Shown: positions 26,575 to 48,144 of the stretch, one piece after another
How positions within the stretch are numbered: position 1 is the first letter of the stretch
How the letters are laid out: the number at the start of each line of letters is the position of its first letter
Assembly: GCA_965203905.1 (NCBI GenBank)
Contig: CBDBDQ010000005.1
Coordinates: 160,001 to 224,000, forward strand
DNA from: Spirochaetia bacterium
GTDB lineage: Bacteria; Spirochaetota; Spirochaetia; SZUA-6; Bin103
Length of the DNA stretch: 64,000 nt
Direction: 5' to 3'
The notes under the pieces: generated by a model
Databases searched by the model: none
What the model saw: only the letters and a program-made list of their open reading frames with translations
Told to the model about the DNA's origin: nothing
Translations under genes and position numbers: made by a program

Positions 26575-26890
26575 AATTGTCGTAGCCATAGGTTTCGCGC
26601 GGATTTCAAAGTTCTGGTGTCTTGTGCACCGTTGAGTGGAGAATCCCATGCGGAGTTCCGGCTGTCGATGCGTTGTGTCGGCCCGGAACGCGGTCAAGAG
26701 GCCAGAGCGAAGACTTGGGCGGTACCGCCCTCTCTTCGTTAGCTAGCTTGACTTAAAGGCGTGGAGATGGAGTTGGACGATACTATTCTTAAGTTATTTT
26801 GATAACTTCCGTACCAATTCGTCGCTAACCTTCAAGCAACGAACCAAATGGAAATAGCCGCCTCACAGTCTGTAGCGCGGCTATTTTTAT
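26575..26890 (+). ncRNA. Candidate structured non-coding RNA (unassigned family)
   Basis: Upstream TTGACA(26551)-N15-TGTAAT; hairpins 26655-26689, 26692-26753 and 26766-26823, the last two with G-U pairs that form only on the + strand; ends in a terminator; no convincing ORF. Confidence 0.4.
26852..26890. terminator. Intrinsic terminator hairpin, probably bidirectional
   Basis: AAATAGCCGC...GCGGCTATTT stem with a T run on the + strand and a short A run on the 5' side; abuts the stop of the 26887..27774 gene. Confidence 0.75.
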
Positions 26891-28485: not shown

Positions 28486-28734
28486 CAGTCGGACGAATGC
28501 GGTAGGTCCTTCGGGTGGATCTCTCACACAGGGCGGGCGGGCACCCGATACACCTCAACAGCGAAGAGATACGAGAGAATCCAGGATGGCGGCTACAGGC
28601 GCACGACGGTGGGGCCCGCGGTCCGGTCTGTCGCAGCTCCGCTTTGCGTGGCGTCAAACAATCTCCCGCCCATCACCGTGGCCGTGGTTCCCCACTCGAC
28701 ATTTTCGGCGCTGCACTTCAATCTGCCCCCCGTC

Positions 28735-29763: not shown

Positions 29764-29773
29764 GCGACCACTC

Positions 29774-31849: not shown

Positions 31850-32342
31850 TCGCCAGACCACCAGCGGCCGGTTCTCCCGAAAACAGGATAAATACTTTCA
31901 GAAAAGTCACTTGACGCAAGGTCACCGACCCCTGCGCGAGGCCGTAACAGCGCCAAGCACGGGAGCCCGGATGCTCGGTGTCCGTGGAATGGGAAAAAAT
32001 GACCCACCTAATCGCCGGCCCGGCGTCGGAGTGGTACCCGATCCGTCACGGGACGGGCGCTTGATACAGGAATGCCGAGCGAAGTGGAACTCTCGCCAGA
32101 CCACGGAATGCCACGCGCATACGCCGTGAACTGCGACCATCTCAGACCGTCCAGCGCGGCAAGCTCGGCCGTCTGGTCACGAGCGTCCAGGGACCGTGAT
32201 GGCCCAGGTAGCGCGGGCCATTCAGTTGCACTTGCACTGCGGTGACCGTCCGGCAATCCGCGCGTGGCCGGCGGGGGCGGCGGTTCAGCTTGACCGCGAG
32301 AAAGCGGGCGTGCTACACCTCGTGCCGAGGTGGCGTACACAA

Positions 32343-32987
32343 GTGTCAGCCCTAGAATCGAGCGTCCTCGTCCTCAACAGCGGCTACACGGCAGTCCGTA
32401 TCACCAACGCCCGGCGCGCCTTCATTCTGCTGATCCGGGAGGCGGCCGAGGTGGTGACCACGGATGCAGGCCAATTCCAGACCTACGATCTGGCAGCCTG
32501 GATTCTGTGGTCGGAGCTGGTCCGCACCGGTTACAGCGTCGACGCGCAGGCGGAGGAACATGATCCGCCCGACTGGGTCCATACGCCACGCCTGGTAATC
32601 GCGGTACCGCGGGTCATTCGGCTGCTTCGCTACAGCGGACGGCCGCAGCGGGAGGTGCGCCTTACCCGCCGTAACATCCACGCCCGCGACCTCGGTCGCT
32701 GCCACTACTGCGGCCAGCGGTTCCCGAGCCGCGAGCTCACCGTCGACCACGTGATCCCGCGCTCCCTTGGCGGGCGCGACACCTGGGAGAACCTGGTGAC
32801 CGCGTGCGTACCGTGCAACTCGCGCAAGGGCAGCCGCACCCCCCAGGCCGCCAACATGCGCCTGCATCGCACGCCGACCAAGCCGCGCACCAACCCGACC
32901 ATCGTGCAGCGCCTGAAGAGCCCCAAGTACCGCGTATGGCGGCTGTTCGTGGACGAGTCCTCCACCCACCTCGGCGTCGGCGCCTAG
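32343..32987 (+). CDS. HNH endonuclease (McrA-like, VLVLN type)
   Basis: SVLVLNSGY, PRVIRL, LTRRNIHARD, CHYCG, TVDHVIPRSLGG...WENLVTACVPCNSRKG. Confidence 0.92.
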   Translation: MSALESSVLVLNSGYTAVRITNARRAFILLIREAAEVVTTDAGQFQTYDLAAWILWSELVRTGYSVDAQAEEHDPPDWVHTPRLVIAVPRVIRLLRYSGRPQREVRLTRRNIHARDLGRCHYCGQRFPSRELTVDHVIPRSLGGRDTWENLVTACVPCNSRKGSRTPQAANMRLHRTPTKPRTNPTIVQRLKSPKYRVWRLFVDESSTHLGVGA

Positions 32988-33063: not shown

Positions 33064-34053
33064 TCACCGGTCGGTGCTGGAGGCACCGCTGTCACGCTGG
33101 CTCAGTTCGTGCCTGATGGTCCGTTCCAGAGCCTCGCGCAAACCTATCGGGGGCCGGAATCCGGTTCCGTGCATGCGGTCAGTCGAGAATGTCGTGGTAC
33201 TGCAGAACTTACGGATGCGGACCGCGCTGATCGGCAACCGTCTCCCGGTGACAGCGGCCAGCACATCGCATGCAACACCGCCCAGGTACCCTATGGGATA
33301 CGGAATTCGGGCTCTGATGGCTGGGGGCCGGCCTAGCGTCGTCAAGACGATCTGGACCAGTTCTCCCATCGAGAGGTCGGGACCATCGGCATAGTTGAAC
33401 AGATGGGTGCCCGCCCCCAGGCTGAGCACGTGCACCAGGAACGCGCTTACATTTCCGACGTAGGCCATCGACTTCCGGTTACGGCCGCTGCCTACCATCA
33501 CGAATCGCCGGGACATGATCTGGCGCAGGAGCTGGTAGACGTTGCCCCGATTGCCCTCCCCGAATATCACCGTGGGACGGACGATCACTAGCGACCGCCG
33601 CTCGGGTGCCTCAGCCTGCCATGCACGATAGATCTGCTCGGCTTCCAGCTTCGAACGCCCGTACGCATTCAACGGCTCGGGGGACGTCCCCTCGGAACTA
33701 TTGGGCTCTGCCAAGCCATAGACTGCCGCCGAGCTTGTGAAGATCAACCGATCGATACCCAGCTCTCGACACGCGCGGCAGACGTTAGCGGCCCCCGCCA
33801 CATTTACTTGATGGTAGAGCGAGACCGGCTTGACATCATCGCGGTGCACTGCCGCCAGGTTATAGACGATCTCAGTCCCATCTAGGGCTGCTGTCAGGCC
33901 CTGGCAGTCACGTACGTCCCCCAGGCGTTGCATCCCATCGCCCCTAGCAGCCACGACGTCCACCGTCCTCACATCGTGCCCGCCGTCCCTCACCAATCCG
34001 GCGAGTCGCCTCCCTATGAACCCCCGGCCCCCAAGGATCCCTATGGTCGCCAT
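33064..34053 (-). CDS. NAD-dependent epimerase/dehydratase (nucleotide-sugar)
   Basis: GGRGFIG, NLAAVHRDD, FTSS, YGRSK, RPTVIFGEGNRGNV. Confidence 0.9.
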   Translation of the reverse strand: MATIGILGGRGFIGRRLAGLVRDGGHDVRTVDVVAARGDGMQRLGDVRDCQGLTAALDGTEIVYNLAAVHRDDVKPVSLYHQVNVAGAANVCRACRELGIDRLIFTSSAAVYGLAEPNSSEGTSPEPLNAYGRSKLEAEQIYRAWQAEAPERRSLVIVRPTVIFGEGNRGNVYQLLRQIMSRRFVMVGSGRNRKSMAYVGNVSAFLVHVLSLGAGTHLFNYADGPDLSMGELVQIVLTTLGRPPAIRARIPYPIGYLGGVACDVLAAVTGRRLPISAVRIRKFCSTTTFSTDRMHGTGFRPPIGLREALERTIRHELSQRDSGASSTDR

Positions 34054-34906: not shown

Positions 34907-36007
34907 TCATGGTCCCACTATTCTTGTTAAATCAGCCGCCATTCGGTCATACCAATAGTGGCTTCGGAAGAACTCCCCGCGAGCTCTAGCGCCCCCACAG
35001 AGCCTGTTGTAGAGCTCCGGATTGTGCATTAGACGTACTATCGCGTCTCTCAAAGACGCAGACGATCGAGGCTCGACCAGGAGCCCGCTTTTCTCATCCT
35101 CGACCACCTCAGGGATCCCAGCCCAGCGCGTCGCGATGACCGGTCGACCACACTGCATTGCTTCCAATATGACACCCGGGTAGCCTTCTGACTCCCAATA
35201 GGTCGGCAGCAGCAACACGTCGTGCTGCCGGATTATCTCCGGTACCTCGCTGGGACTCACCGCACCACAGTAGGTGGCTATCGGGTGGTCCACCAGCAAA
35301 CTCATGTCAACGCCGGGAAGCACCGGCCCATAGAAGCTGAGCACACAGGAACCAGGAAGTTTGCGACAGGCCTCAAGGGTCTCCCGGAAGCCCTTCTCCG
35401 GACGGATCTGGGACATGAACAGCAACCGGAAAATCGTGGTCCGGATCCTGACGGGGCCCGCCGCTACATTCCTGGTGTTCGCATGCCATCGGAAGTTAGG
35501 ACGGGTACGAAAGTAAAACAGTTGACGTCTAGTCTGTACATAGATGACATCCGAACGCATGTACGTATGATCCGCCCACCAACGAAGAATAGAGCGACAC
35601 CGTTGGTAGCGTATAGCTAGGTCACCACCAAACACGCGTAACGCCAAAGGACGTCCGGCAAGTGTGCAGAGCAGCCACATGAACGCGCCCAGAGTCCAGG
35701 TGGTGCCGGCCGAGACGTTCAAAAATACAACTTGAACATGCTTTACCTGCGAAGCAGTTTGGCGGAAGATGCGAAACATCGTCATGATGTTGTTGCGTAA
35801 GGCCAGCCACCGTGTAAGATTGATTCGTGGACGACTTGTGTCGACCAGAGATATCTCGAAATCTCGGTCCCGCAAGCTTCGCACCATCTCCGAGAAGTTG
35901 ACGGCAGCACCGCCCACCGGGTTCGATCGAGTGGGCTCGGTAGGAGGCAGCGGCCCAACCAGAAGCACCCTTATGTCTTTGCTCAATCGCATTGCTATCC
36001 AGCGCAC
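34907..36007 (-). CDS. Glycosyltransferase family 4
   Basis: EKG, LPTYWESEGYPGVILEAMQCGRPVIAT (ExxxxxxxE), GIPEVV; start may be ATG 35992. Confidence 0.88.
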   Translation of the reverse strand: MRWIAMRLSKDIRVLLVGPLPPTEPTRSNPVGGAAVNFSEMVRSLRDRDFEISLVDTSRPRINLTRWLALRNNIMTMFRIFRQTASQVKHVQVVFLNVSAGTTWTLGAFMWLLCTLAGRPLALRVFGGDLAIRYQRCRSILRWWADHTYMRSDVIYVQTRRQLFYFRTRPNFRWHANTRNVAAGPVRIRTTIFRLLFMSQIRPEKGFRETLEACRKLPGSCVLSFYGPVLPGVDMSLLVDHPIATYCGAVSPSEVPEIIRQHDVLLLPTYWESEGYPGVILEAMQCGRPVIATRWAGIPEVVEDEKSGLLVEPRSSASLRDAIVRLMHNPELYNRLCGGARARGEFFRSHYWYDRMAADLTRIVGP

Positions 36008-36826
36008 CTACCAAACGCGAGTCAAACGCTTAATCCAGTAGTTCCAAGTTGCCGGGTAGCAGAGCGATATTGCGGCACATCCAAGGTACGACATCCCACC
36101 GTGTCTTCGCTCCCGCAACGAGTACAACCGACGCTGAGGCGCACTCAATTTGCCTTCATGACGATCAAGAATGGCACGAACTCGGGTCACGACTTCCACC
36201 GTTGTACCGATGCGGTCACCGCCGTGACCGAGGTCCATGGTGTACAAGCACTGGGCAACCCGCAAGGCTGTACCCCACCGCCCTATCATCCGAATCCATA
36301 GATCGAAATCCTGTCCTGCCGCCAAGGTTTCATCGAAAGCACCGACCTCGCGAACCTTGTCGGTCTCAGTAAGAATCTGGTTGCCGACGCAGTTGCCCCA
36401 TAGAATATCGGGCAGATGAACGAGTATCTGGCCACGGAAACGTGGTGATGTGGATCCGTTTCTCAACTGCATCATATTGGATGCGACAAAGGAATACGTT
36501 GGTTGATAGGCGCTCAAGAGGGTCACGACGCGGTCTCGGTGAAAGTAATCATCGTCGTCCAGACCGGTATAGAAGGTGCCCCGGGCCAGGTCGATCCCGG
36601 TGTTGCGGCTGCCACAGGCTCCCTTGGTGCGACGGTTCGAATACCAACGCACACGTTCGTCTTGGATGGTTTCGCAGACCTCAAGACCCTCACCGCGGCT
36701 GCTGTCGTCGATCACGATGACTTCAATGTGTTGGTACGACTGGGAGAGCGCCGATGCTATCGCTCGACGCAGTAGGAGAGGACGTGCGCAGGTCGGAATT
36801 ACTATCGAAATCAGAGGATCAGACAT
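36008..36826 (-). CDS. Glycosyltransferase family 2
   Basis: ISIVIPT, IDD, GACGSRNTGI, TGLDDDD, FDETL...QDFDLWIR. Confidence 0.9.
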   Translation of the reverse strand: MSDPLISIVIPTCARPLLLRRAIASALSQSYQHIEVIVIDDSSRGEGLEVCETIQDERVRWYSNRRTKGACGSRNTGIDLARGTFYTGLDDDDYFHRDRVVTLLSAYQPTYSFVASNMMQLRNGSTSPRFRGQILVHLPDILWGNCVGNQILTETDKVREVGAFDETLAAGQDFDLWIRMIGRWGTALRVAQCLYTMDLGHGGDRIGTTVEVVTRVRAILDRHEGKLSAPQRRLYSLRERRHGGMSYLGCAAISLCYPATWNYWIKRLTRVW

Positions 36827-36864: not shown

Positions 36865-38142
36865 CTAAGGAGTGCTATGGACATTCGTGTAGGGCCGTGA
36901 GGTCAGGCGAACTCGACTACGAGACGTTGACGCGCCGATGGGTGTAGACTGAGTTGCCAGCGCTATCAAGAGCAGGACAAAGACACCGCGTGCGTCGAAC
37001 AGGTCCCCGGATATACTGCTCGAGATTAGGAGCAAGATCAGTGCTGCGGCAATTGCCGGGTCGCCGAGACCACGGCCATTGCGCCAACGTCTGATGAACA
37101 CCAATAACGGAAGACAGAAAAGCAATAGTCCTATGATACCACCTTCGGCAAACGCTTCGACGAATACATTGTGAGGGTAAAGGCCAAACGTATCAAGTTG
37201 TGCGAAACCGGCCAAGCCGATTCCGCCGACAGGGCTCCCTAGTCCTGCTACGATTCCATCAATTAACAGGATGCCACGATTGGAAGTGTAACCCTCAATT
37301 AGCAGAAGGCGGATAAATCGAGTGGCAAACACCGCTATGGCGCGGCTTCCCAGGTCGGTGAGTACGAGCGCCCCTCCGGCGATCACCGAGAGCAATAACG
37401 TGACCCGTAGGCGACGGTCTAATCCGCGAATTGCGGCATACGCGAGAGCACCAAGAACCAGTGCTATCAGCGCTCCTCGAGAACCGGAGAGGAGCACGAG
37501 GAAGGAACCAACCGGTACCACTATCAAGCCGACGAATCTAGCCCAACGATGGTTGGACTGGAACGCAATACGAAGGGCTGCCAGGGTCAAGAGCCCCATG
37601 TTGCGCCCGAACACATTAGGACCACCGCCCAATACACTCAACCTTCCCAGTGACGGGTTGGTAAACACGGATGCCACTCCCGCAACTGCGAGAACCAAGC
37701 CGAGCCCAAAGATAGCATACCAGAAACCACTGACTGTACTTCCGATTCCGCATAGCCGTAGCGCACCAACGGTAAGCACACAGGACCACGCAACAAACAT
37801 CAGGTCGTAGGCCTTGGCTCCAGCCAGAGACAGATCAGGTGCCCACAACGTCGTGGCCACCATGTATACGACGAACACAACGATCACGGCCGACCACGTG
37901 CGCACGCCGCCGGCGAACGACCGTACCGCCCCCGGACCTCGTCCCGCGGCGACGCCCAACAGCCACACCGACAGCGCCGCAAGCACGAGCAACCTGAGCT
38001 GTAAGTACCAGACAACCTCCTCGGATCCGATGAACTGACCCAGGTATGAACGCCCAACCAATTGAAACGTCCCAATCAGAAAGCCTGCCGCGACAGCTCC
38101 CAGTCGCCGGTCATGGTGGTGATTCCTAAGGTAGTTACTCAT
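36865..38142 (-). CDS. O-antigen ligase / Wzy polymerase family membrane protein
   Basis: About 11 TM segments, GGPNVFGR, LSGSRGAL, YPHNVFVEAFAEGGIIG. Confidence 0.82.
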   Translation of the reverse strand: MSNYLRNHHHDRRLGAVAAGFLIGTFQLVGRSYLGQFIGSEEVVWYLQLRLLVLAALSVWLLGVAAGRGPGAVRSFAGGVRTWSAVIVVFVVYMVATTLWAPDLSLAGAKAYDLMFVAWSCVLTVGALRLCGIGSTVSGFWYAIFGLGLVLAVAGVASVFTNPSLGRLSVLGGGPNVFGRNMGLLTLAALRIAFQSNHRWARFVGLIVVPVGSFLVLLSGSRGALIALVLGALAYAAIRGLDRRLRVTLLLSVIAGGALVLTDLGSRAIAVFATRFIRLLLIEGYTSNRGILLIDGIVAGLGSPVGGIGLAGFAQLDTFGLYPHNVFVEAFAEGGIIGLLLFCLPLLVFIRRWRNGRGLGDPAIAAALILLLISSSISGDLFDARGVFVLLLIALATQSTPIGASTSRSRVRLTSRPYTNVHSTP

Positions 38143-38162: not shown

Positions 38163-39119
38163 TTAGATTCCTCGGTCGAGCTCACCGGCCAGCATTTCAC
38201 CTATCCTTAGCTCTGCCGAGCGTGGTCGCATTCGACGTCTGGCGCCGTCCGGGCAGCTGGTCAACTCACCTACCTTGACCGTGCTGTCGTCCGTGTACAT
38301 GTCGACTCTAATGTAGGACAGTGAGTGTGACAGCGAGCGTGCCAGCTTGAGCATCACGTCAAGACGCTTCGGCCTCGCGTCAGCAATGCGCCCTTGTGGA
38401 TACGCCCACTCGAGATCCAGCCTCTTCCAAGACGCGTCGTACCAATTCCTTGTATGGCACGTATAGCGTCCAGAGTCAACCTGAATGAGCCTCGGTACAC
38501 CGCCAAAACAGTGGACCTTGAAGTCCCGCGGCACAGGCCTACCGCCGTCGTCAAAAAAATCTTCCACCAGGATCTTCGGCTCAAGATAGCGATAATTAGA
38601 CTCCCGTGACACCCGATAGTAATTCATCCTCAGCCAGCGCTTGAGCACGGCGCGGTCGAACCCCTGACTCTTCTCTCTGACCAGAATAACCTGTCCACTC
38701 ATATGGGAAGGCTTGATTACACATGGAAACGCACCTAACCTAAGACGGTCGATTTCTTCTTCTGTACGTATAATTGCCAGCGTCTTCATCGTGTACTGCC
38801 AACCGACCATGCCTCCAATGTACGACTTTACGAACTCTTTGTCGGTAACAAACTGACGCAACGGTGAAAGCAGGGTTCCATCATTTCTGAGCCGAAAAAG
38901 ACAGTCATTGAACAACCTCGGGTTTCGATACCTGGGAACACGTCGCTGCCCAGAAATATAGCGCAGCGTGGAGTACAGTTTGTCTATTGGTGTTCCAGCT
39001 GGAAGGTGTGCCCGCAACGTCCTCGCAATCGCCAACAGCCCGGTGTGAATTGGCCCATGAGCACGCACCGATCTCTCCTTCAAGGGCAAAGTCCACTGCT
39101 CGATCCACCAGTCTCCCAA
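38163..39119 (-). CDS. TupA-like ATP-grasp amidoligase
   Basis: FVTDKEFVKSYI, VIKPSHMSG, ESNYRYLEPKILVE, DFKVHCFGG, YIRVDMY, VGELT. Confidence 0.85.
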   Translation of the reverse strand: MGDWWIEQWTLPLKERSVRAHGPIHTGLLAIARTLRAHLPAGTPIDKLYSTLRYISGQRRVPRYRNPRLFNDCLFRLRNDGTLLSPLRQFVTDKEFVKSYIGGMVGWQYTMKTLAIIRTEEEIDRLRLGAFPCVIKPSHMSGQVILVREKSQGFDRAVLKRWLRMNYYRVSRESNYRYLEPKILVEDFFDDGGRPVPRDFKVHCFGGVPRLIQVDSGRYTCHTRNWYDASWKRLDLEWAYPQGRIADARPKRLDVMLKLARSLSHSLSYIRVDMYTDDSTVKVGELTSCPDGARRRMRPRSAELRIGEMLAGELDRGI

Positions 39120-39120
39120 T

Positions 39121-40632
39121 TCAATGTTGATGTCTCCTCTCGCGGACCGTCGCGATTGCTATGGCGCGCTTTAGATCCTCCATGAAGCGCCGTCCTCCTG
39201 GCAACATTGCGTGACTACCAATAAACACTCCGACATACAGCACGATGTTCAGCGCGATCCACCAGATTCCACTTCCTGAGGGGACCGCCAGTACCACTCC
39301 CGCGGCAATCAGCGCCGCTACGAAGGGTCGCCAAATTGATCCGAGGACGGCACCTCCACGCATCGACAAAGACGGCCCTACGTACCATATCTCGCCGACG
39401 AGGCTCACTGCGGTCGCTATTCCGTAACCGGCAGCGACGCCCACTGGGCCCCAAGTCCAGCCAACCGCCACGCCGCCAACGCTTGCTACACAGCGCATCA
39501 GTCGGACCACCATCAGTCTCCTGGAGTGCCCCCGTGGCACCAACAGCCATCCGACAAGCTTACCGACGATCCACGTCGCCCCCGAGAGTGTCAGCCAGCG
39601 CACCAGCGGTATCGCTGCGTCCCACTGCTTGCCCAATAGCACACTGACCACCAGCGGAGCTTCCACCGCCAATAAGGCGAGCGCCCCACAGCCTGCAAAT
39701 GCGGTTACCGTTAGCGTCTGAGCAAATAGTCTGTCGAACGCGGCAACGTCCCGTTGGAGACGACTAAGAGATGCTGGGACCACACGCTCCAATGGCTCCA
39801 CAAGATATGACAGTGGAGTCATCACGCTCACCGATGCGCGATTGTACAATCCGAGTTCCGACGCCCCGGCGACGACCCCCAACAGGGTTGGTGCCGCGTT
39901 CCTTGAAAAGTAGAACAGGATCGTCGAAGGTACAAGATTGTTTCCGAATCGTAGAACAGAAGATACATTCGTGGCTTTTTTTGGACGACAAGGTGTCCAT
40001 CCAGATAGTATCCAGTTCCACACGGTACGTGCCGTCTGCATCACCACATGCATTGCGACTAGAGCCCAGAATCCGCCACCTGATAGAGCCACAGTGACAC
40101 CCACGGAAATGCCGATCACATTGGATCCTATGCGTACCAACTGCAACGTCCGATACCGCAGCTGTCGCCTCATCAAGGCTTCATGCTGAGCTCCCACACC
40201 AATCGTAACAACCGTGACCGACATTGCTATCGTCGCGCCGATTACCCGGGTTTCGTCAAACAGCAGAGCCAGGAGCGGGGAGCATAGCGCGGTGACTCCA
40301 GCCAGCGCAAGGCCCAGCAAGCTGTTTATCCAGAACAACTTCGACAGTTGATCATCGCTCAAGTTCAAGCGCTGGGTGGATGCAGCGGTCAACCCCCAAT
40401 CACCGATTAGGGAAACTAGATTCAGCAAGATACTGCACATCGCGACGATTCCGAAGTCTTCGGGAGTTAGGAGCCGGGCAAGCACGGCGACTGCTCCAAA
40501 ACGGAGACACGCCTGAGACAACATCGCGACGATGCCAGCTCCCGTTCCTCGTATGCTGGCATCTCTTACTTGGTAGTATCGAGACTGCTCGTCGGAGTAA
40601 CTGTTGATATCTTGCTGATTCTGGCCAGACAT
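39121..40632 (-). CDS. wzx: Polysaccharide flippase (Wzx/WzxC-like)
   Basis: VLARLLTPEDFGIVAM, FWIN, GGFWALV, LGLYNRA, LLGKQW; about 12 TM segments. Confidence 0.87.
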   Translation of the reverse strand: MSGQNQQDINSYSDEQSRYYQVRDASIRGTGAGIVAMLSQACLRFGAVAVLARLLTPEDFGIVAMCSILLNLVSLIGDWGLTAASTQRLNLSDDQLSKLFWINSLLGLALAGVTALCSPLLALLFDETRVIGATIAMSVTVVTIGVGAQHEALMRRQLRYRTLQLVRIGSNVIGISVGVTVALSGGGFWALVAMHVVMQTARTVWNWILSGWTPCRPKKATNVSSVLRFGNNLVPSTILFYFSRNAAPTLLGVVAGASELGLYNRASVSVMTPLSYLVEPLERVVPASLSRLQRDVAAFDRLFAQTLTVTAFAGCGALALLAVEAPLVVSVLLGKQWDAAIPLVRWLTLSGATWIVGKLVGWLLVPRGHSRRLMVVRLMRCVASVGGVAVGWTWGPVGVAAGYGIATAVSLVGEIWYVGPSLSMRGGAVLGSIWRPFVAALIAAGVVLAVPSGSGIWWIALNIVLYVGVFIGSHAMLPGGRRFMEDLKRAIAIATVRERRHQH

Positions 40633-40885
40633 CGACAGCGGGCAGTATCTCCCACGTCGCTATCACGGCGCAAGCGAGTACACATTCAAGTGTACGGGGC
40701 TGAACCCGTAGCCATCCGATACACCGGCTGGCGCCGCTCAGGGGGCCTCGGGCTTGCGTTGACAACATATGATGCGGTGCAGAGATCGGTTGGAGTCTTG
40801 CCTGTGGCCGTCAGCCAGGGCGCCTCAACGTGGAGTGGATCAGGTATTGCGAGCGTAGATCTCGCTACTCGAAAGGGCAGCGAAG

Positions 40886-42154
40886 GTGGTCTTGACGAGC
40901 ACGCTCCCTATCGGATCAAATCACGTTGTGATCGATGCCCAGGACGCTGGTGGCAGCTGGAGTACGCTGGATGCTGGAGCCCTGAACCACGATAGACCGT
41001 CGCCGCGAGACCACCTCACCACTGTCATTCGCAGTACCACGCATGCACGCGCCGGGCTGGTCGGCAACCCGTCCGACCTGTTTGGCGGCAAGGTGATCTC
41101 GCTGCTGTTCGATGCGTTCGCGGCCCACGTCTCGCTGTACGAGTCGGAGCGGCTGACGGTGCTGCCCAATACGCGGGACGCTACCAGCTTCGACGACATG
41201 GCGGAGCTGGTCCGCTATCGGCGCCAGCACGGCTACTACGGGGGGCTGCGCCTGATCGAGGCGATCCTGGTGCGGTTCGACCACTGCTGCCGCGAACGCG
41301 GCATCGCCCTGCCGCGGCGCAACTGCACCATCGAGTACCACTCGGATATTCCGTTCGGTGTGGGGCTGGGTGGCTCGTCGGCGATCATAGCCGCGGTGTT
41401 CAACGCGCTGATGCAGTTCTACGAGCTCACCGAGGCGGACATTCCCAAGGCCGAGCAGCCCAATGTCATTCTGGAGGCGGAGACGGTGGAGCTGGGAATC
41501 AGCGCCGGGCCGCAGGACCGCGTGGTAGCGGTCTACGGGGGCGTAGTGGCGATGGACTTCTCCCCCGGCGCCTATGCCCGCAATGGCGGTCGCCATGGCG
41601 ATTACCGGCGGCTGGCTCCGGATCTCCTCCCGCCGCTGTTCGTGGCCTACCACGAGGGGTTGTCCAAGTCCTCGGGCTCCATCCACAACGTCGTGCGCTA
41701 CCGTGCCGAGGTCGAGCATGACCGGGCGATCACGGAGGCCATGGCCGCCAAGGCCGCCCTGGTCGACGAAGCGCTCGCGGCACTGCATCAGGGGCATGGC
41801 GAGCGCATCGGCGCGATCATGGATCGTGACTTCGACCTGCGCCAGTCGGTGTACGGCCTGCCCCCCGATCAGATACGCATGATCGCCATTGCGCGCGAAC
41901 AGGGAGCACACGCCAAGTTCACCGGATCCGGTGGGGCCGCCGTCGGCACCTATGTGGACGCTGCGCATCTGCGGCTGCTCAAGGGGGCCTACGAGGACGA
42001 AGGGTTCACGGTGGTGCCGGTCCGGGTGGCCGCGGCGCACAGGCCGTGCCGGTCCGCGGCCGGCGCCCGAGCCGTCCTTGATGAAGCCGTAGTGGGCAAA
42101 CCCGGAGCACCGGCTTCTCCCACGGTGCGCGTCGGATCTGCGGCGCGGCCTTGA
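40886..42154 (+). CDS. GHMP kinase resembling plant glucuronokinase (start uncertain; conserved part begins near 41025)
   Basis: HARAGLVGNPSD, GYYGGLRL, IPFGVGLGGSSAI, ELGISAGPQDRV, YGGVVAMDF, LLPPL, AKFTGSGGA. Confidence 0.82.
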   Translation: MVLTSTLPIGSNHVVIDAQDAGGSWSTLDAGALNHDRPSPRDHLTTVIRSTTHARAGLVGNPSDLFGGKVISLLFDAFAAHVSLYESERLTVLPNTRDATSFDDMAELVRYRRQHGYYGGLRLIEAILVRFDHCCRERGIALPRRNCTIEYHSDIPFGVGLGGSSAIIAAVFNALMQFYELTEADIPKAEQPNVILEAETVELGISAGPQDRVVAVYGGVVAMDFSPGAYARNGGRHGDYRRLAPDLLPPLFVAYHEGLSKSSGSIHNVVRYRAEVEHDRAITEAMAAKAALVDEALAALHQGHGERIGAIMDRDFDLRQSVYGLPPDQIRMIAIAREQGAHAKFTGSGGAAVGTYVDAAHLRLLKGAYEDEGFTVVPVRVAAAHRPCRSAAGARAVLDEAVVGKPGAPASPTVRVGSAARP

Positions 42155-42903
42155 ATGCCGTCCTCCTCGCCGCGGGCTACGGTACGCGCCTCCGGGCGCT
42201 GTTCCCCGATACGCCGAAGGCGTTGATCGAGATCGCCGGGCGTCCCGTCCTCGCTCACCTGCTCGACAATCTCGCCCGGTCCGGCCTCGTCGATGGTGTC
42301 ACCATCGTTACCAACGACCGCTACCACCCCGCCTTGCAAGGCTACCTCGACTCGCATCCGCCGCGCCTCTCCACCTGCCTGCTCACCGATGGGACCGGTA
42401 CCGAACAGGATCGGCTCGGCGCGCTCGGCGATCTGCAGTTTGCTCTCGACCACCTCGATCGTCGCGAGGATCTCCTCGTCACGGCGACCGACAAACTGCT
42501 CACCTTCGAGCTTGCGGCCCTCCTGCGCTGGGCGCGGCAGCGTGCCGCGCCGGTCAATGTGTGCGTGCGGCTGTCGAGTCGCGCCCATCTTGCAGGCAGG
42601 CACGGCTGCGTGCTGCTCGACTCCGACGCGCGTATCGTCGACTTCGAAGAGAAACCCCGGAACCCGAAGTCGCGGCTCGCCAGCCTGGCGATCTACGTGC
42701 TGCCGGTGGCGGTGCAGCCTCTGGTGCGCGAGTACCTGCTGCAGGGCGGCGACGCGGACGCTCCCGGCTACTTCCTGGGCTGGTTGGCGCAGCGTGCCGC
42801 CGTCTACGGCTACGTCGCCCCGGGCCCCAGCTACGATGTAGGTACTCCCGCTACCTACGCGGCTGCGCAGCGCGCCTTCCGCGCACCCGATATCGAGGCC
42901 TGA
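42151..42903 (+). CDS. Sugar-1-phosphate nucleotidyltransferase family protein
   Basis: LLAAGYGTRL...PKAL, RLGALGDL, FEEKP, DAPG, YDVG; TTGA overlap with the kinase gene. Confidence 0.87.
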   Translation: MNAVLLAAGYGTRLRALFPDTPKALIEIAGRPVLAHLLDNLARSGLVDGVTIVTNDRYHPALQGYLDSHPPRLSTCLLTDGTGTEQDRLGALGDLQFALDHLDRREDLLVTATDKLLTFELAALLRWARQRAAPVNVCVRLSSRAHLAGRHGCVLLDSDARIVDFEEKPRNPKSRLASLAIYVLPVAVQPLVREYLLQGGDADAPGYFLGWLAQRAAVYGYVAPGPSYDVGTPATYAAAQRAFRAPDIEA

Positions 42904-42949
42904 TCGCCGTCGGTTCCAAGACCACCGCGGTCCGGGCTATGCTGCCGCC

Positions 42950-43234
42950 ATGGCTACTGCAACCTGGAATGGGGCCGTTCTCGCCGCGTCGGATACGTTC
43001 GAGACCGTCGAGGGGAACATCTACTTCCCGCCCGATACCATCAACCGTGAGCACTTCGTCGAAAGTTCGCACCGTACGGTGTGCGGCTGGAAGGGCGAAG
43101 CCAGCTACTACGATCTGCAGGTGAACGGTGAGACCAATGCCAACGCGGCATTCTACTACCCCGATCCGCTCCCGGCCGCGATGAAGGTCAAGGGCTACGT
43201 GGCGTTCTGGAACGGCGTCGAGGTCAGCGAGTAA
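42950..43234 (+). CDS. DUF427 domain protein
   Basis: ATWNGAVLA, VEGNIYFPP, CGWKGEASYY, YVAFW; TATGCT 6 nt upstream of the ATG. Confidence 0.9.
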   Translation: MATATWNGAVLAASDTFETVEGNIYFPPDTINREHFVESSHRTVCGWKGEASYYDLQVNGETNANAAFYYPDPLPAAMKVKGYVAFWNGVEVSE

Positions 43235-43252
43235 ACTGCCGCCGCCGCCAGG

Positions 43253-43660
43253 TCACGGCGCGGACGGATGATCGGTCCCGGTGCCGGGCTTGGGGAAGAA
43301 CTGGTCGATGAGAATCGCGTTCCCGTCCGGGTCGCGGCATGCGATGTGAGCCGGACCCGTGCCGTCGGGATCGGTGTCGGTCTGCAACTCGATTCCCCCC
43401 GCAATGAGGGAGTCCCTGATCTCCCGGATGTCCGTGAACTCGTCGAGCTGTGAGCCATCGCGGCGCAGACCGGGGTTGAAGGTGAGGATGTTGCCTTCGA
43501 ACATGCCCTGAAAGAGGCCGATCGTCGCGCTCCCGTTGACCATGATCAGGTAGCCGGTACCATCGCCGCCGGCGCGGGAGAAGCCGAGCTTCTCGTAAAA
43601 TGCCTTGGCGACCTGCAGATCCTTGACTGACAGACTCACCGAGAACGCACCGAGATCCAT
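43253..43660 (-). CDS. VOC/glyoxalase family protein
   Basis: MDLGAFSVSLSVKDL...FYEKLGF, IGLFQGMFEGNILTFNPG, DPDGNAILIDQ. Confidence 0.88.
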   Translation of the reverse strand: MDLGAFSVSLSVKDLQVAKAFYEKLGFSRAGGDGTGYLIMVNGSATIGLFQGMFEGNILTFNPGLRRDGSQLDEFTDIREIRDSLIAGGIELQTDTDPDGTGPAHIACRDPDGNAILIDQFFPKPGTGTDHPSAP

Positions 43661-43877: not shown

Positions 43878-44906
43878 ATGAAAACGTTCCATCGCGCGGC
43901 GCTGGTGCTGGCCGCCGCCGTCTGCGCATCGTTGGCTGCCGTCGCCGTGAGCGCCGATCAGCTCGCCGTCAAGTTCTCGCTCGACTGGAAGTTCGAGGGT
44001 CCGGCCGCGGCTTACCTGCTGGCCCTCGACAAGGGCTACTTCGCCGATGAGGGCCTGGACGTCACCATCGACACCGGCCAGGGTTCGCTGGAGGCGATCC
44101 CGCGCGTGGCCAGCGGCGTCTACCAGTTCGGCTTCGCCGACATCAATTCCCTTATCAAGTTCCACGACAAGAATCCGGATGTGGGCATCAAGGGCATTCT
44201 CATGGTGTACGACGCCCCGCCGTTCGCGATCGTGACGCTGGCCAAGACCGGCATCGAGACCCCGCGCGACCTGGAGGGGCGCATTCTCGGCGCGCCGGCT
44301 CCCGACGGCGCCTACGCGCAGTGGAAGGCGTTCGTCAAGGAGAACGGCATCGACGCCAGCAAGGTGACCATCGAGAACGTCGGCTTCCCGGTGCGCGAAC
44401 CGATGCTGGTCGCGGGCCAGGTCGACGCCATCACCGGCTACTCCTTCTCCTCGTTCCTCAACCTCAAGTCCAAGGGTGTGGCGCCGGACGACATCCGGGT
44501 GTTCCTGATGTCGGACTACGGCCTCGAACTGTACGGCAACACGGTCATCGTCAACCCCGAGTTCGCCGCCGAGAACCCAGCGGCGGTTGCCGGCTTCGTG
44601 CGCGCCATCATCAGGGGCTGGCAGGACACGGTGGCCGATCCGGCGGCCGCGGTGAAGCACGTGCTGGAGCGCAACCTGGTGGCGCGCGAGCCGGTCGAGC
44701 TGGAGCGCCTGGAGATGTGCATTGCCGACAACGTGAACACTTCGTATGTGATGGAGCACGGGTTCGGCAGCGTCGACCTGGCGCGGCTGGCATCGTCGAT
44801 CGAGCAGATCGGCGTGACCTACGAGTTCAGCGCGGCACCGCCGACACCCGAGGCCGTGTTCACCAACGAGTACCTGCCGGCGGCCGCGGAGCGCATGCTC
44901 CAGTAG
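43878..44906 (+). CDS. ABC substrate-binding protein, NMT1/THI5-like
   Basis: Signal peptide, FSLDWKFEGP, KGYFADEGLDV, GFADIN, REPML, LYGN. Confidence 0.88.
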   Translation: MKTFHRAALVLAAAVCASLAAVAVSADQLAVKFSLDWKFEGPAAAYLLALDKGYFADEGLDVTIDTGQGSLEAIPRVASGVYQFGFADINSLIKFHDKNPDVGIKGILMVYDAPPFAIVTLAKTGIETPRDLEGRILGAPAPDGAYAQWKAFVKENGIDASKVTIENVGFPVREPMLVAGQVDAITGYSFSSFLNLKSKGVAPDDIRVFLMSDYGLELYGNTVIVNPEFAAENPAAVAGFVRAIIRGWQDTVADPAAAVKHVLERNLVAREPVELERLEMCIADNVNTSYVMEHGFGSVDLARLASSIEQIGVTYEFSAAPPTPEAVFTNEYLPAAAERMLQ

Positions 44907-44913
44907 GACCGCA

Positions 44914-45732
44914 GTGGGCGCGGGTGGGAACGGAACCACGCAGGCGGACGCGTTCGTCCAGTTGCGCGACGTCAGCCTGACCTACGGCGGCGGTGCCACC
45001 GGTACGCTGGTCCTGCAGGGTCTCGACCTGCAGGTGGAGCGCGGTGAGTTCGCCGCCGTGGTGGGCCCGAGCGGGTGCGGCAAGTCGACGCTGATGAAGC
45101 TGATGTCGGGCCTGCTCCCGGCCCGCACCGGGGAGACGATCGTGGCCGGGCAGCCGGTCACCGGGCCTTTGAAGATCGTCGGGATGGCGTTCCAGAACCC
45201 TACCCTGCTGCTGTGGCGCTCCACGTTGGACAACGTGCTGCTGCCGTTGGAGATCGTGGAGCCGCACCGGCGCCGGCTGCGGGCGCAGCGCGCCGCGTAC
45301 GTGGCGGCCGCGGAGGAGTTGCTGGCGCTGGTGGGCCTGTCCGGCTACGGCGACCACTATCCGTGGCAGCTCTCCGGCGGCATGCAGCAACGGGCGTCGC
45401 TGTGTCGGGCGCTGATTCACGAACCCGACCTGCTGATGCTGGACGAGCCGTTCGCCGCCCTGGACGCATTCACCCGTGAGGAGCTGTGGTGCGTGCTGCG
45501 CGACCTGTGGCAGCGCAAGCAGTTCACCGTGATCCTGGTCACCCACGACCTGCGCGAGGCGGTGTTCCTGGCCGACACCGTGCACGTGATGAGCGCCCGT
45601 CCGGGACGGATCGAAGTGACCCGCGAGATCGACCTGCCGCGCCCGCGCGAGCCCGATATCTGCTACACGCCGGAGTTCGTCGCCGTGGTACAGGAGCTGC
45701 GCGACCATATCGCGCAGTTCCGGGTGATATGA
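44914..45732 (+). CDS. ABC ATP-binding protein (NitT/TauB-like)
   Basis: GPSGCGKST, LSGGMQQR, MLDEPFAALD, VTHD. Confidence 0.92.
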   Translation: MGAGGNGTTQADAFVQLRDVSLTYGGGATGTLVLQGLDLQVERGEFAAVVGPSGCGKSTLMKLMSGLLPARTGETIVAGQPVTGPLKIVGMAFQNPTLLLWRSTLDNVLLPLEIVEPHRRRLRAQRAAYVAAAEELLALVGLSGYGDHYPWQLSGGMQQRASLCRALIHEPDLLMLDEPFAALDAFTREELWCVLRDLWQRKQFTVILVTHDLREAVFLADTVHVMSARPGRIEVTREIDLPRPREPDICYTPEFVAVVQELRDHIAQFRVI

Positions 45733-46553
45733 GCGACTCGATGGATGCCCGGTCCGGCGCCGCAGCTGCACCGGTGCAGGCAGGGTGGATCCGCTGGCGC
45801 GAGAAGCTGTCGCCCTGGGTGATGACCCTGGGCGGCTTCCTGATCTGGGAGGCGGTGTGCCGGGTGTTCCGGATTCCCTCCTACGTGCTGCCGACTCCCA
45901 GCGTGATCCTCGCCACGTTCGCCGAGTTTCGCCGCGCACTCGTCGTCAACTCGATCCAGACGTTGTGGACGACGCTGGCCGGATTCGGCATCGCGGTAGG
46001 GTTCGGGCTGCTGCTGGGGCTGATCATCGGCTGGTCGAAGACCATCTACAACGGCCTCTATCCGATGATGATCGGCTTCAACTGCGTGCCAAAGGTGGCC
46101 GTGGTGCCGATTCTCGTGCTCTGGTTCGGCATCGGCTCTCCACCGGCCATCCTGACCGCGTTCCTGATCTCGTTCTTCCCGATCGTGGTCAACGTGGCCA
46201 CCGGGCTGGCGACCCTGGAGCCGGAGCTGGAGGACGTACTGCGGGCGTTGGGAGCACACAAGCGCGACATCATGTTCAAGGTAGGCATTCCACGCTCCCT
46301 GCCCTACTTCTTCGGTTCCCTCAAGGTCGCGATCACGCTGGCGTTCGTGGGCTCGGTGGTGGCCGAAACGGTGGCCGCCAACGTCGGCATCGGACACATG
46401 ATGCTGATCGCACAGGCCAACTTCGAGGTGCCGCTGGTGTTCGCGGGCCTGTTTGCTCTGGCCGCGGAGGGGATCGGCATGTATGCTGCCTTCGCCTGGC
46501 TGGAGCGGCGCCTCACCGGGTGGGCCTTCCGCCGCGACGCCGCCAACGCCTGA
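45729..46553 (+). CDS. ABC permease (NitT/TauC-like)
   Basis: From ATG 45729; VLPTPS, VPKVAVVPILVLWFG, FFPIVVNVATGL, LPYFFGSLK. Confidence 0.9.
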   Translation: MSDSMDARSGAAAAPVQAGWIRWREKLSPWVMTLGGFLIWEAVCRVFRIPSYVLPTPSVILATFAEFRRALVVNSIQTLWTTLAGFGIAVGFGLLLGLIIGWSKTIYNGLYPMMIGFNCVPKVAVVPILVLWFGIGSPPAILTAFLISFFPIVVNVATGLATLEPELEDVLRALGAHKRDIMFKVGIPRSLPYFFGSLKVAITLAFVGSVVAETVAANVGIGHMMLIAQANFEVPLVFAGLFALAAEGIGMYAAFAWLERRLTGWAFRRDAANA

Positions 46554-46566
46554 TTCCGGAGGATGG

Positions 46567-48144
46567 ATGAGCGAGCGACGCGACGCCGCCGGCGGGCACC
46601 TGCTGGAGGCGCGCGACATCGTGAAGCGGTTCGGCGACTTCACCGCCAACGATCGAGTGACCCTGCGCCTGCGCTCGGGCCAGATCCACGCCCTGCTGGG
46701 CGAGAACGGTGCCGGCAAGTCGACCCTGGTCAAGATCATGTACGGCGCGCTGCAACCCACGGCGGGCAGTCTGCACTGGCGTGGGCAACCCGTTTCCATC
46801 CCCAATCCGGCGGCCGCCCGGCGGCTCGGCATCGCCATGGTGTTCCAGCACTTCTCGCTGTTCGAGGCACTCACCGTGGTCGAGAACATCGCCCTTGCCA
46901 TGCGCGGCGCGTTCGACCCGGCGGCCCTGGGCCGGCGCATCGCACGGGTCTCGCGTGAGTACGGGCTGCCGCTGAAGCCCAGTGCGCTGGTAGCCGACCT
47001 CTCGGTCGGCGAGCGGCAGCGGATCGAGATCGTGCGCTGCCTGTTGCAGGAGCCGGAGCTCCTGATCATGGACGAGCCGACCGCGGTGCTCACGCCGCAG
47101 GAGGCGGACCAGCTCTTCGTCACCCTGCGCCGCCTGGCGCGCGACGGCTGCGCGGTGCTGTACATCTCGCACCGGCTGGAGGAAGTGAAGCGGCTGTGCC
47201 ACGAGGCCACGATCCTGCGCCTCGGCAAGGTGGTGGCCGAGGTCGACCCCGAGGTGGAGACCGCCGCCTCGCTGGCGCGCCTCATGGTGGGGGCGGACGT
47301 GCACGAGGTGGAGGCCGCGGGTCACACCACGGACGGCACGCCGATGCTGAGCGTCAGCAACCTGTCGCTGCCGGCCGGCGGACCGTTCGGGGTGGCGCTG
47401 CGCAATGTCGCCCTGGAGGTGCGTGCGGGTGAGGTGGTGGCAATCGCCGGGGTGGCCGGCAACGGCCAGTCCGAGCTGTTCGAGGCGCTGTCCGGGGAGC
47501 GCATCGCTCCGGCGGCCGAGTCCATCACGATCGGCGGCCACCACTGCGGCACGCGCGACGTGACCGCGCGCCGCCAGCTCGGCGCCGCCTTCGTACCCGA
47601 GGAACGACTCGGCCACAGCGCCGTGCCCGGGTTCATGCTGGCCGACAACGTGCTCCTGACCCGCCACGCCTCCGACCCCGGCATGGTGCGCGCCGGTTTC
47701 ATCGACCGTGCCAGGACGCGCAGCGCGGCGGCGCGCGTCACCGAGCGGTTCGACGTGCGGGTCAGCCAGGAGAATGCGCGGGCCGGGTCGCTGTCCGGCG
47801 GCAACCTGCAGAAGTTCGTGGTGGGACGGGAGCTGGACCGCAACCCGCAGGTGCTGGTGATCAACCAGCCGACCTGGGGAGTTGACGCCGGCGCCGCGGC
47901 CCTGATCCGCCAGGTGCTGTCCGACATGGCTCAGGCCGGTGCCGCGGTCCTGGTGATCAGCCAGGACCTCGACGAGATCTTCGAGATCGCCGACCGCATC
48001 GCGGTGATCTCGCGCGGCGAGCTGTCGGAGTCCTATCCCGCGGGTACGATCGACCGCGAACGGATCGGCCTGCTGATGGCCGGCGCCCACGAGAGCGCAG
48101 CCGGCGCGCAGGAGAGCGCCACCGGCGCTCAGGTCACGGCGTGA
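46567..48144 (+). CDS. Nucleoside/purine ABC transporter ATP-binding protein (two NBDs)
   Basis: LLGENGAGKST, LSVGERQRIEI, DEPTAVLTPQE, GVAGNGQ, LSGGNLQK, QPTWGVD. Confidence 0.92.
   Translation: MSERRDAAGGHLLEARDIVKRFGDFTANDRVTLRLRSGQIHALLGENGAGKSTLVKIMYGALQPTAGSLHWRGQPVSIPNPAAARRLGIAMVFQHFSLFEALTVVENIALAMRGAFDPAALGRRIARVSREYGLPLKPSALVADLSVGERQRIEIVRCLLQEPELLIMDEPTAVLTPQEADQLFVTLRRLARDGCAVLYISHRLEEVKRLCHEATILRLGKVVAEVDPEVETAASLARLMVGADVHEVEAAGHTTDGTPMLSVSNLSLPAGGPFGVALRNVALEVRAGEVVAIAGVAGNGQSELFEALSGERIAPAAESITIGGHHCGTRDVTARRQLGAAFVPEERLGHSAVPGFMLADNVLLTRHASDPGMVRAGFIDRARTRSAAARVTERFDVRVSQENARAGSLSGGNLQKFVVGRELDRNPQVLVINQPTWGVDAGAAALIRQVLSDMAQAGAAVLVISQDLDEIFEIADRIAVISRGELSESYPAGTIDRERIGLLMAGAHESAAGAQESATGAQVTA
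48079..48132 (+). repeat. Imperfect 21-bp tandem repeat (about 2.5 copies) in the ATPase C-terminal tail
   Basis: gccggcgcccacgagagcgca / gccggcgcgcaggagagcgcc / accggcgctcag, encoding AGAHESA-AGAQESA-TGAQ. Confidence 0.65.

Follow-up and report, generated by a model that had tools for sequence, protein, structure and literature searches.

The window analysed here, a 64,000-nucleotide stretch of DNA from a Spirochaetia bacterium, carries two overlapping genes on its forward strand. The first (40886..42154, +) encodes a GHMP sugar-1-kinase of the glucuronokinase family (PF00288, E 1.3e-12), whose conserved core begins at 41024. The second (42151..42903, +) encodes a sugar-1-phosphate nucleotidyltransferase of 250 residues (PF00483, E 1.1e-20) that appears to be of the type found as the N-terminal domain of GKUP, a fused animal enzyme, and not of the GalU type. 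The TTG start codon of this partner (42151-42153) overlaps the TGA stop codon of the kinase (42152-42154), and the overlap of the two genes recorded in the initial annotation thus amounts to 4 nt. The same 4-nt overlap recurs in nine related loci (L010, L011, L013, L015, L018, L019, L021, L024 and L025). A DUF427 gene lies just beyond the pair (42950-43234), and a divergent intergenic region, in which no regulatory site was seen, separates the kinase frame from a wzx gene (40633..40885). Neither a sigma-70-like promoter nor a terminator-like site was found in 40400-43400.

The true start of the kinase is uncertain. Its frame opens with a GTG at 40886 and contains two further in-frame starts, TTG at 40892 and GTG at 40928, any of which may be used. 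The initial annotation had the gene begin at 41024, but the codon at that position is GTC and therefore not the kinase start. In the close relatives L010 and L011, an ATG lies 17 codons before the core; the window has CTG at this place. The motifs ARAGLVGNPSD, GYYGGLRL, ELGISAGPQDRV..YGG..MDF, LLPPL, SGSIH and KFTGSGGA, which had been listed as glucuronokinase-like, all occur in the order given here in the protein encoded by 40886-42154, which also contains IPFGVGLGGSSA, the GHMP phosphate-binding motif. The AF2 model of the protein (pLDDT 89.5) has the GHMP fold, and its best fold matches in the PDB are all GHMP kinases; disorder is predicted for the tail past core residue 346 or so. No glucuronokinase was among the solved structures matched, either by sequence or by fold, and by sequence the nearest solved structures are those of HddA-like kinases (3k85, E 1e-12).

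Both plants and fish possess homologs of this kinase. Over its full length, the protein is 39% identical to “glucuronokinase 1” of Ziziphus jujuba (P0213; BLASTP, 342 columns, E 9e-71), with which it has in common GNPSD near the N-terminus, QDRV, and GSGGA near the C-terminus. A carp protein named “glucuronokinase with putative uridyl pyrophosphorylase” is 43% identical to it in its kinase half (BLASTP, 330 columns, E 5e-82). These plant and fish references are orthologs, named by NCBI/UniRef, of the proteins that were assayed from Arabidopsis and zebrafish; by the BLASTP E values, the likeness of the kinase to them is far beyond chance. At the aligned places, P0213 reads YARVGLLGNPSD, GYNGGVRL, ELGIVAGLQDRV and KFTGSGGA. 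The plant ortholog therefore matches the motifs that the initial annotation gives for the Arabidopsis enzyme. Further, the Lilium peptide VGFLGNPSDVYFGR, given in PMC2823444, aligns with AGLVGNPSDLFGGK of the kinase at 7 of 14 positions, as counted by eye. For the enzymes of these kinase groups from Arabidopsis and zebrafish, specificity for glucuronate is reported (PMC2823444, PMC3938481).

The family placement was examined with a tree, because a grouping with the heptose kinase HddA or another GHMP clade had been named as an outcome that would refute it. No such grouping was seen: the 72 glucuronokinase-family rows are split from the five HddA-like rows by a branch of length 2.18 with an SH-aLRT support of 100. 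Within the same tree, the bacterial kinase rows form clades apart from the eukaryote rows. Sixty-two residues are conserved at a level of at least 90% in the 19 eukaryote-type rows; the window kinase keeps 53 of them, whereas the HddA-like rows keep 19-29. Of the 27 such residues that are absent from every HddA-like row, 20 are retained by the window kinase. At the other nine of the 62 positions, the clade of the window kinase departs from the eukaryote consensus, and two of these clade changes fall within the motif AGLQDRVxQVY, which reads AGPQDRVVAVY in the window. The GHMP fold is common to this kinase, HddA/WcbL and the Bacteroides enzyme Fkp (fucokinase/GDP-fucose pyrophosphorylase), but the identity to those proteins is about 20%, and the NCBIfam models score far below their cut-offs (HddA, 41.1 bits against 600; Fkp, 18.7 bits against 721). 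HddA and Fkp identities are thus not supported. By its sequence, the kinase is a member of the glucuronokinase family (EC 2.7.1.43), not an HddA.

The nucleotidyltransferase has a more distant, but apparently specific, counterpart in animals. Its N-terminus, MNAVLLAAGYGTRL, retains the LAAGYGTRL motif (G-x-G-T-R type), and the protein is 28% identical to the N-terminal domain of carp GKUP (253 columns, E 9e-21). When the fish domain was used as a tblastn query against the 8-Mb genome, the partner gene was the sole match (E 1.4e-15); an HMM built from 15 fused N-domains likewise picked out the partner among the genome's ORFs (E 4e-13, with the runner-up at 0.14). In the reverse direction, an HMM of the bacterial partners gave the fish protein 125 bits, against 87.5 bits for the best of 56 decoy nucleotidyltransferases. 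Nine of 35 fused-length proteins (the fish protein and eight others) scored above all decoys, at 92-141 bits, and the other 26 scored at or under the best decoy. Against the fish N-domain the partner reaches 78 bits, compared with about 40 bits against the GalU-like enzymes that accompany the kinase in other lineages; those enzymes, in turn, reach 157-176 bits against the GalU-like paralog of this genome and 23-27 bits against the fish domain. At the level of sequence, then, the partner appears to have its specific relative in the pyrophosphorylase domain that is fused to the kinase in fish, and would be the bacterial counterpart of that domain. Public annotation names it “glucose-1-phosphate thymidylyltransferase” or gives it a generic name, and the solved structures closest to it are those of GDP-mannose pyrophosphorylases (E 1e-14).

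The association between the two genes extends well beyond the window. A PF00483 gene is directly downstream of the kinase in 20 of the 26 related loci with downstream DNA, in a set of 29 loci that was gathered with tight alignment and is biased to close relatives. Among 81 genomes of the same order, the kinase is present in 24, the GKUP-type partner in 18, and both in 17; in all 17, the two genes are direct neighbors on the same strand. In just one genome of the 81 is the partner present without the kinase, as fragments. Conversely, seven of the 24 kinase-positive genomes are without this partner type, and decayed copies are present in G070 and G079. In other lineages, a GalU-like nucleotidyltransferase occupies the same position or is fused to the kinase (L029, L030, L031, P0198), which points to a shared need for nucleotidyl transfer. 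An exhaustive search with the kinase recovered many fused proteins of 560-960 residues. A word-based search with the partner returned 58 longer relatives, none with a GHMP domain, and is weak evidence on fusions because it needs shared words. One candidate bacterial fusion, P0035 (580 residues), was discarded, as the frame of its N-terminal portion seems to have been miscalled.

Capsules, glycosaminoglycan-like polymers and many further acidic glycans are built with UDP-glucuronate as the donor, and in bacteria this nucleotide sugar is taken to arise from UDP-glucose through Ugd. The genome under study is without a Ugd-type dehydrogenase: no PF00984 protein was found in it, with a control that was positive in 11 of 14 genomes; matches to TIGR03026 were weak and confined to the N-terminal part; and the Ugd-family dehydrogenases of relatives had no tblastn match. 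This absence does not reflect a wider rule. Ugd-family genes occur in 17 of 24 kinase-positive and 39 of 57 kinase-negative genomes of the order and are thus equally common with or without the kinase, so the pair is no general replacement for Ugd. Complementarity between Ugd and the kinase fits only this genome and six others, and was rejected as a general pattern. The genome does encode UxaC (649 bits), and so handles free hexuronates; the alpha-glucuronidases GH115 and GH67 were not found in it. No UDP-glucuronate-using enzyme was identified in the genome.

We propose that the two genes probably constitute a translationally coupled salvage module that would convert free glucuronate to glucuronate-1-phosphate and then to UDP-glucuronate. 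In this scheme, the kinase would use ATP to phosphorylate free D-glucuronate at C1; the partner would then couple this glucuronate-1-phosphate with an NTP, most probably UTP; and the resulting UDP-glucuronate would serve glycosyltransferases. The pair would thus be the unfused bacterial form of animal GKUP. The sugar and the nucleotide, as well as any consumption of the product in the neighboring glycan island, are what we infer. The kinase tree, the likeness of the partner to the GKUP domain, and the conserved coupling of the genes all support the two-gene reading offered in the initial annotation. That annotation overrated the novelty of a bacterial glucuronokinase, however: homologs from bacteria were already in print in 2009 (PMC2823444), and JGI annotation names such proteins glucuronokinases. 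The literature searched contained no activity for any bacterial member of the family.

The proposed logic, a kinase followed by a pyrophosphorylase, is that of the plant route. Arabidopsis glucuronokinase (At3g01640, EC 2.7.1.43) acts with UDP-sugar pyrophosphorylase in a myo-inositol oxygenation/salvage route (PMC2823444). The plant pyrophosphorylase is a large enzyme of broad specificity that is encoded elsewhere, whereas the spirochetal partner is a small RmlA-fold enzyme translationally coupled to the kinase. MIOX was not found in the genome, a weak result because the control for it was silent (positive in 0 of 14 genomes); so far as it goes, glucuronate would be scavenged by this organism, not made from inositol. 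Both halves of zebrafish GKUP (DrGKUP) have homologs in the pair, but here the order is kinase, then transferase, in two genes, and the fusion has the transferase at its N-terminus. PMC3938481 states that bacterial relatives of the GKUP pyrophosphorylase domain consist of that domain alone; a word search of its text found no mention of an operon, adjacency, neighbors, a gene cluster or horizontal transfer. Fkp likewise couples a kinase to a nucleotidyltransferase for sugar salvage.

On the other side of the intergenic region lies a glycan island on the reverse strand. Its edge is formed by a Wzx-type polysaccharide flippase that is divergent from the kinase (39121..40632, −; PF13440, E 1.9e-65), followed by a TupA-like ATP-grasp protein (38163..39119, −; PF14305, E 2.7e-35), which may be an amidoligase with a sugar carboxylate as its substrate. 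Pfam matches further identify a Wzy/O-antigen-ligase-like protein (36865-38142, −), glycosyltransferases of families GT2 (36008-36826, −) and GT4 (34907-36007, −), and an SDR epimerase/dehydratase (33064-34053, −). The PDB matches of this SDR are weak (best E 3.8e-19), and neither it nor nine other SDR genes of the genome received an equivalog-level NCBIfam name. The pair had been described as sitting beside a uronate-type glycan locus. A Wzx/Wzy island does adjoin it, yet the link between the two is weak, for the flanks are not syntenic and codon usage differs. The GC3 of wzx is 0.61 against 0.82 for the kinase; four other island genes (36865-38142 left out) have values of 0.61-0.74, and most other genes 0.83-0.92. 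DNA similarity to relatives starts only at 40942 and ends at the edges of the kinase-partner pair. A Wzx homolog upstream of the kinase was found in one related locus only (L012), a DUF427 gene near the kinase in none of 29, and, the nucleotidyltransferase aside, no neighbor of the kinase recurs in more than three of 26 loci. The label “uronate-type” derives solely from the TupA-like gene, which is the only hint of a uronic acid in the neighboring glycan. In C. jejuni Cj1438, the TupA-like domain is reported to amidate glucuronic acid at its C6 carboxylate (PMC11800379); the protein in the window had no PDB relative by sequence.

The same architecture could instead act on another substrate, such as galacturonate, a different hexuronate or a neutral sugar, or employ a nucleotide other than UTP. 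We judge this rather unlikely. It draws on the separation of the bacterial kinase clades from the eukaryote rows, on an identity of just 39-43% to the eukaryote proteins, and on the two clade-specific changes around the QDR motif; for the partner, the thymidylyltransferase or generic names in public annotation and the GDP-mannose pyrophosphorylases among its solved relatives are also compatible with it. Against these points stand the retention by the kinase of most eukaryote-conserved residues, including most of those that the HddA-like rows lack, and the specific likeness of the partner to the GKUP domain. In addition, PMC2823444 describes almost no identity between the plant galacturonate kinase and glucuronokinase, so the known galacturonate kinase is of a different lineage.

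It is also conceivable that the kinase makes glucuronate-1-phosphate while the partner is inactive or otherwise employed, in which case the pair would supply no UDP-glucuronate. The fused domain of DrGKUP is described as having “extremely low” pyrophosphorylase activity under all conditions tried (PMC3938481), and the reaction of the partner family itself is therefore not firmly established. The kinase-positive genomes without this partner type and the two decayed copies would fit this explanation as well. We nevertheless regard it as very unlikely, given the intact LAAGYGTRL motif, the adjacency of the genes in every genome that has both, and the GalU-like enzymes that are placed or fused likewise elsewhere. 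A place for the kinase in a heptose or fucose pathway, as a heptose-phosphate kinase of the HddA type or an enzyme of the fucokinase type, might be suggested by its closest solved relatives and some automatic ESM Atlas cluster names (“D,D-heptose 7-phosphate kinase family”), but is extremely improbable in view of the model scores, the fully supported split in the tree and the few conserved residues kept by the HddA-like rows.

A bolder version of the salvage reading holds that the pair is the sole route to UDP-glucuronate in this organism, that the horizontally acquired TupA-like island builds an amidated-uronate surface glycan from scavenged glucuronate, and that the partner is a single-domain relative of the part joined to the kinase in animals and other eukaryotes. 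We consider this combination doubtful. Were it true, the cell surface would depend on the environmental supply of glucuronate, and a tractable bacterial enzyme would be at hand for the UDP-glucuronate pyrophosphorylase reaction that is barely demonstrable in zebrafish. The salvage module itself would have broader consequences. If active, the partner would be a compact catalyst for UDP-glucuronate synthesis and would resolve the doubt over whether the domain fused in fish is active. A kinase/pyrophosphorylase bypass of this kind would let bacteria make acidic glycans directly from scavenged glucuronate, and would explain how such glycans could be made in a genome that has no Ugd.

The forward-strand kinase of the glucuronokinase family and the sugar-1-phosphate nucleotidyltransferase that follows it (42151-42903) constitute a candidate UDP-glucuronate salvage pair, a reading that draws support from homology, from conservation of the gene coupling, and from the fusion of the two in eukaryotes. 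We infer the sugar substrate and the nucleotide of the pair. The observation of the pair made in the initial annotation is confirmed, with a corrected start for the kinase. The six kinase motifs named there all lie, in the order stated, inside the ORF at 40886-42154. The gene cannot begin at 41024, as had been assumed, because the codon there is GTC; the frame opens with GTG at 40886, and other in-frame starts are TTG at 40892 and GTG at 40928. The alignment of more distant kinase homologs starts at 41024. At 17 codons before this position, two close relatives (loci L010 and L011) carry ATG, and the window reads CTG at that place. The reported gene overlap is present: the TTG start of the partner overlaps the kinase stop codon (TGA, 42152-42154) by 4 nt, an arrangement also found in nine related loci. 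The partner product begins with MNAVLLAAGYGTRL, as sugar-1-phosphate nucleotidyltransferases usually do. A pattern scan of 40400-43400 returned no promoter-like or terminator-like sites.

Pfam matches only the GHMP N-terminal domain in the kinase, and no NCBIfam equivalog level is reached. Identities as a fucokinase (18.7 bits versus a cut-off of 721) and as the heptose-phosphate kinase HddA (41 bits versus 600) are not supported. Among solved structures, those closest in sequence are HddA-like kinases (E 1e-12). An exhaustive HMMER search over 1.84 billion representatives, at a threshold of E 1e-30 or better, yielded 356 proteins, many of them 560-960 amino acids long with the kinase as the C-terminal half. 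Ten matches were looked up, and names were obtained for some: P0193 (619 aa) is a [quoted passage not shown], P0213 (366 aa) is a “glucuronokinase 1 [Ziziphus jujuba]”, and others came from protist collections (Chromosphaera, Mallomonas, an MMETSP transcript). In BLASTP comparisons, the window kinase is 39% identical to the plant protein (342 columns, E 9e-71) and 43% identical to the kinase half of the fish protein (330 columns, E 5e-82); as orthologs, these sequences stand in for the Arabidopsis and zebrafish enzymes that were assayed.

A maximum-likelihood tree was built from 77 rows: the window kinase, 22 kinases from named genome loci, 16 kinase parts of fused proteins, 33 other representatives, and five HddA-like kinases from genomes of the same phylum. 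It sets the 72 family rows opposite the five HddA-like rows across a branch of 2.18 (SH-aLRT 100). Grouping with HddA, the outcome that the initial annotation named as telling against its reading, is thus not what the tree recovers. The window belongs to an 18-row clade (support 100) of mostly Spirochaetota sequences. Further, conservation among 19 eukaryote-type rows (five with a source name, the others assigned by fused architecture or tree place) reaches at least 90% at 62 residues; 53 of these residues are present in the window kinase, and 19-29 in the HddA-like rows. Two of the nine changed positions are inside the AGLQDRVxQVY motif. The AlphaFold2 model of the kinase (pLDDT 89.5, with a disordered tail at 347-375) matches only GHMP kinases, at identities of at most 21%, and thus there is no glucuronokinase structure with which to compare substrate-binding residues.

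The coupling of the two genes extends well beyond the window. We gathered 29 kinase loci from named genomes, 26 of which include DNA downstream of the kinase. Their sources are mostly Spirochaetia and Spirochaetales MAGs, joined by Planctomycetia, Thermotogae, Lentisphaerales, Kiritimatiellales, Verrucomicrobia, a delta proteobacterium, Myxococcota, Acidobacteriota, Acidimicrobiales and Tectimicrobiota; the set is skewed to close relatives because the search patterns were derived from a tight alignment. A homolog of the window's kind of partner (type A) is directly downstream on the same strand in 17 of the 26 loci, and a PF00483 gene of ~290 aa occupies the slot in three more, for a total of 20. 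No other neighbor of the kinase recurs in more than three loci. Both genes were sought in 81 genomes sampled evenly from the order of the window: the kinase is found in 24, type A in 18, and both in 17, and the matches abut on one strand in all 17. Seven kinase genomes are without type A, and one genome (G079) has type A without the kinase, as two fragments. DNA similarity between the window and four related loci (L010, L011, L012 and L013) is confined to about 40942 to 42878; therefore, the two genes are conserved as a unit amid changing surroundings. Two same-family genomes hold fragments only, of the partner in G079 (G079:C1:4510521-4512277) and of both kinase and partner in G070 (G070:C1:3687957-3688865); both cases have the look of a pair that has decayed.

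Pieslinger et al. place glucuronokinase genes in “a few bacteria” and list Solibacter, Dyadobacter and Verrucomicrobium (PMC2823444). For the fused zebrafish enzyme, Gangl et al. report clear kinase activity and extremely low pyrophosphorylase activity, and they describe the bacterial relatives of its pyrophosphorylase domain as consisting of that domain only (PMC3938481); a word search of that text gave no mention of operon, adjacency/neighborhood, gene cluster or horizontal. A title-level literature search, in which subscription journals were thinly covered, found no study of the bacterial enzyme or operon. Many bacterial kinase homologs carry the JGI name “glucuronokinase”, and partner homologs are named “glucose-1-phosphate thymidylyltransferase”.

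The partner is a PF00483 protein whose best solved relatives are GDP-mannose pyrophosphorylases (E 1e-14). It is 28% identical to residues 1-244 of the fish fused protein (E 9e-21), and its gene is the single match to the fish N-terminal domain in the 7.99-Mb genome at E 1e-3 or better. The genome's other PF00483 genes comprise one weak match and two clear ones (G000:C5:6548085-6549215, reverse strand; G000:C5:6273794-6274465, forward strand), of which one is GalU-like and one ManC-like, as judged from their N-terminal sequences. An HMM of 15 fused N-domains finds the partner at E 4e-13; the next ORF, the GalU-like one, is at 0.14. With an HMM of bacterial partners, nine of 35 fused-length proteins score above the best of 56 decoys (the best longer relatives of the partner), the fish protein reaching 125 bits versus 87.5 for that decoy; the other 26 are at or below the decoy range, three of them without any match. 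The kinship is thus evident for the fish protein and for some further forms, and blurred for many divergent ones.

A bit-score matrix separates bacterial partners into two kinds. Type A enzymes (those of the window, L018 and L035) reach 173-190 bits against one another, 78-96 against the fish domain, and 39-61 against GalU-like proteins. Type B enzymes are GalU-like, scoring 113-176 bits to the own-genome GalU-like paralog and 23-27 bits to the fish domain; they occur in L029, L030 and the N-terminal half of P0198, a 626-aa fused metagenome protein whose C-terminal half is of the glucuronokinase family. P0198 is placed among the bacterial rows of the tree and is therefore a fusion of bacterial type, separate from that of eukaryotes. 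The window partner, then, is probably of the type fused in animals, not the GalU-like type.

The initial annotation also placed the pair beside a uronate-type glycan locus. A Wzx/Wzy-type island does adjoin it, upstream and divergent, encoding Wzx (39121-40632), a TupA-like ATP-grasp protein (38163-39119), a Wzy/O-antigen-ligase-like protein (36865-38142), a GT2 (36008-36826), a GT4 (34907-36007) and an SDR epimerase/dehydratase (33064-34053). The TupA-like protein is the sole hint of uronic acid in the island's glycan; the TupA-like domain of C. jejuni Cj1438 is described as amidating the C6 carboxylate of glucuronate (PMC11800379). The tie between this TupA-like amidoligase island and the pair is weak, and the flanking DNA is unlike that of relatives. 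The divergent Wzx is shared with L012 only. Third-position GC is 0.61-0.74 in five island genes (the Wzy-like gene not among them), 0.82-0.83 in kinase and partner, and 0.83-0.92 in most other window genes; by this measure, the island seems to have been acquired and the pair to be native.

Elsewhere, the pair adjoins acidic or sulfated glycan genes. In L019 and L050, a bifunctional ATP sulfurylase/APS kinase (PAPS synthase) gene overlaps the partner gene end (L019:3744-5324, forward; L050:2985-4565, reverse), a three-gene unit that would supply UDP-glucuronate and the sulfate donor. A sulfotransferase gene is upstream of the kinase in L020, a pyruvyl transferase gene is near the pair in L025, and a gene of the Ugd (UDP-glucose dehydrogenase) family is 1-3 kb away in genomes G048 and G041. 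Directly upstream of the kinase, same-genus relatives have a leucine-carboxyl-methyltransferase-family gene (PF04072; L013:4989-5879, L014:5023-5913, L051:4078-5514). A remnant of this gene is at L012:1861-2343; it is absent upstream of the window kinase, and two copies are elsewhere in the genome. On the other side, 47 nt past the partner gene, the forward strand encodes a 94-aa DUF427 protein (PF04248, Pfam short name NTP_transf_9; 42950-43234), for which a search of the 29 related loci gave no counterpart near the kinase. A forward-strand ORF run follows (43878-48144), some members having ABC-transporter ATPase signatures (LSGGMQQR in 44914-45732, LSGGNLQK in 46453-48144). Farther away, three long ORFs without a Pfam match (26887-28469, reverse; 28515-29846, forward) are in a low-GC stretch (0.56 at 26-28 kb), near an HNH endonuclease gene (32196-32987) and a GmrSD-like gene (18998-20338).

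The genome assembly, 98.7% complete, gives no match to PF00984 (the same search was positive in 11 of 14 control genomes), only weak N-terminal Rossmann matches to PF03721 and TIGR03026, and no tblastn match at E 0.01 to the dehydrogenases of four relatives; thus, no Ugd-type enzyme was found. The hexuronate enzyme UxaC is present (649 bits), so the cell handles free hexuronates in its cytoplasm. MIOX, of the inositol route to glucuronate, was not found in a search that was positive in no control genome, nor were GH67 and GH115 found in this genome. Complementarity between kinase and Ugd across the order was considered and rejected: PF00984 is present in 17 of the 24 kinase genomes versus 39 of the 57 without the kinase. 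The pair is therefore a candidate salvage route that usually accompanies Ugd. It would be the sole route to UDP-glucuronate in the window's own genome, and likewise in six further genomes of the sample, two of these six being less than 90% complete.
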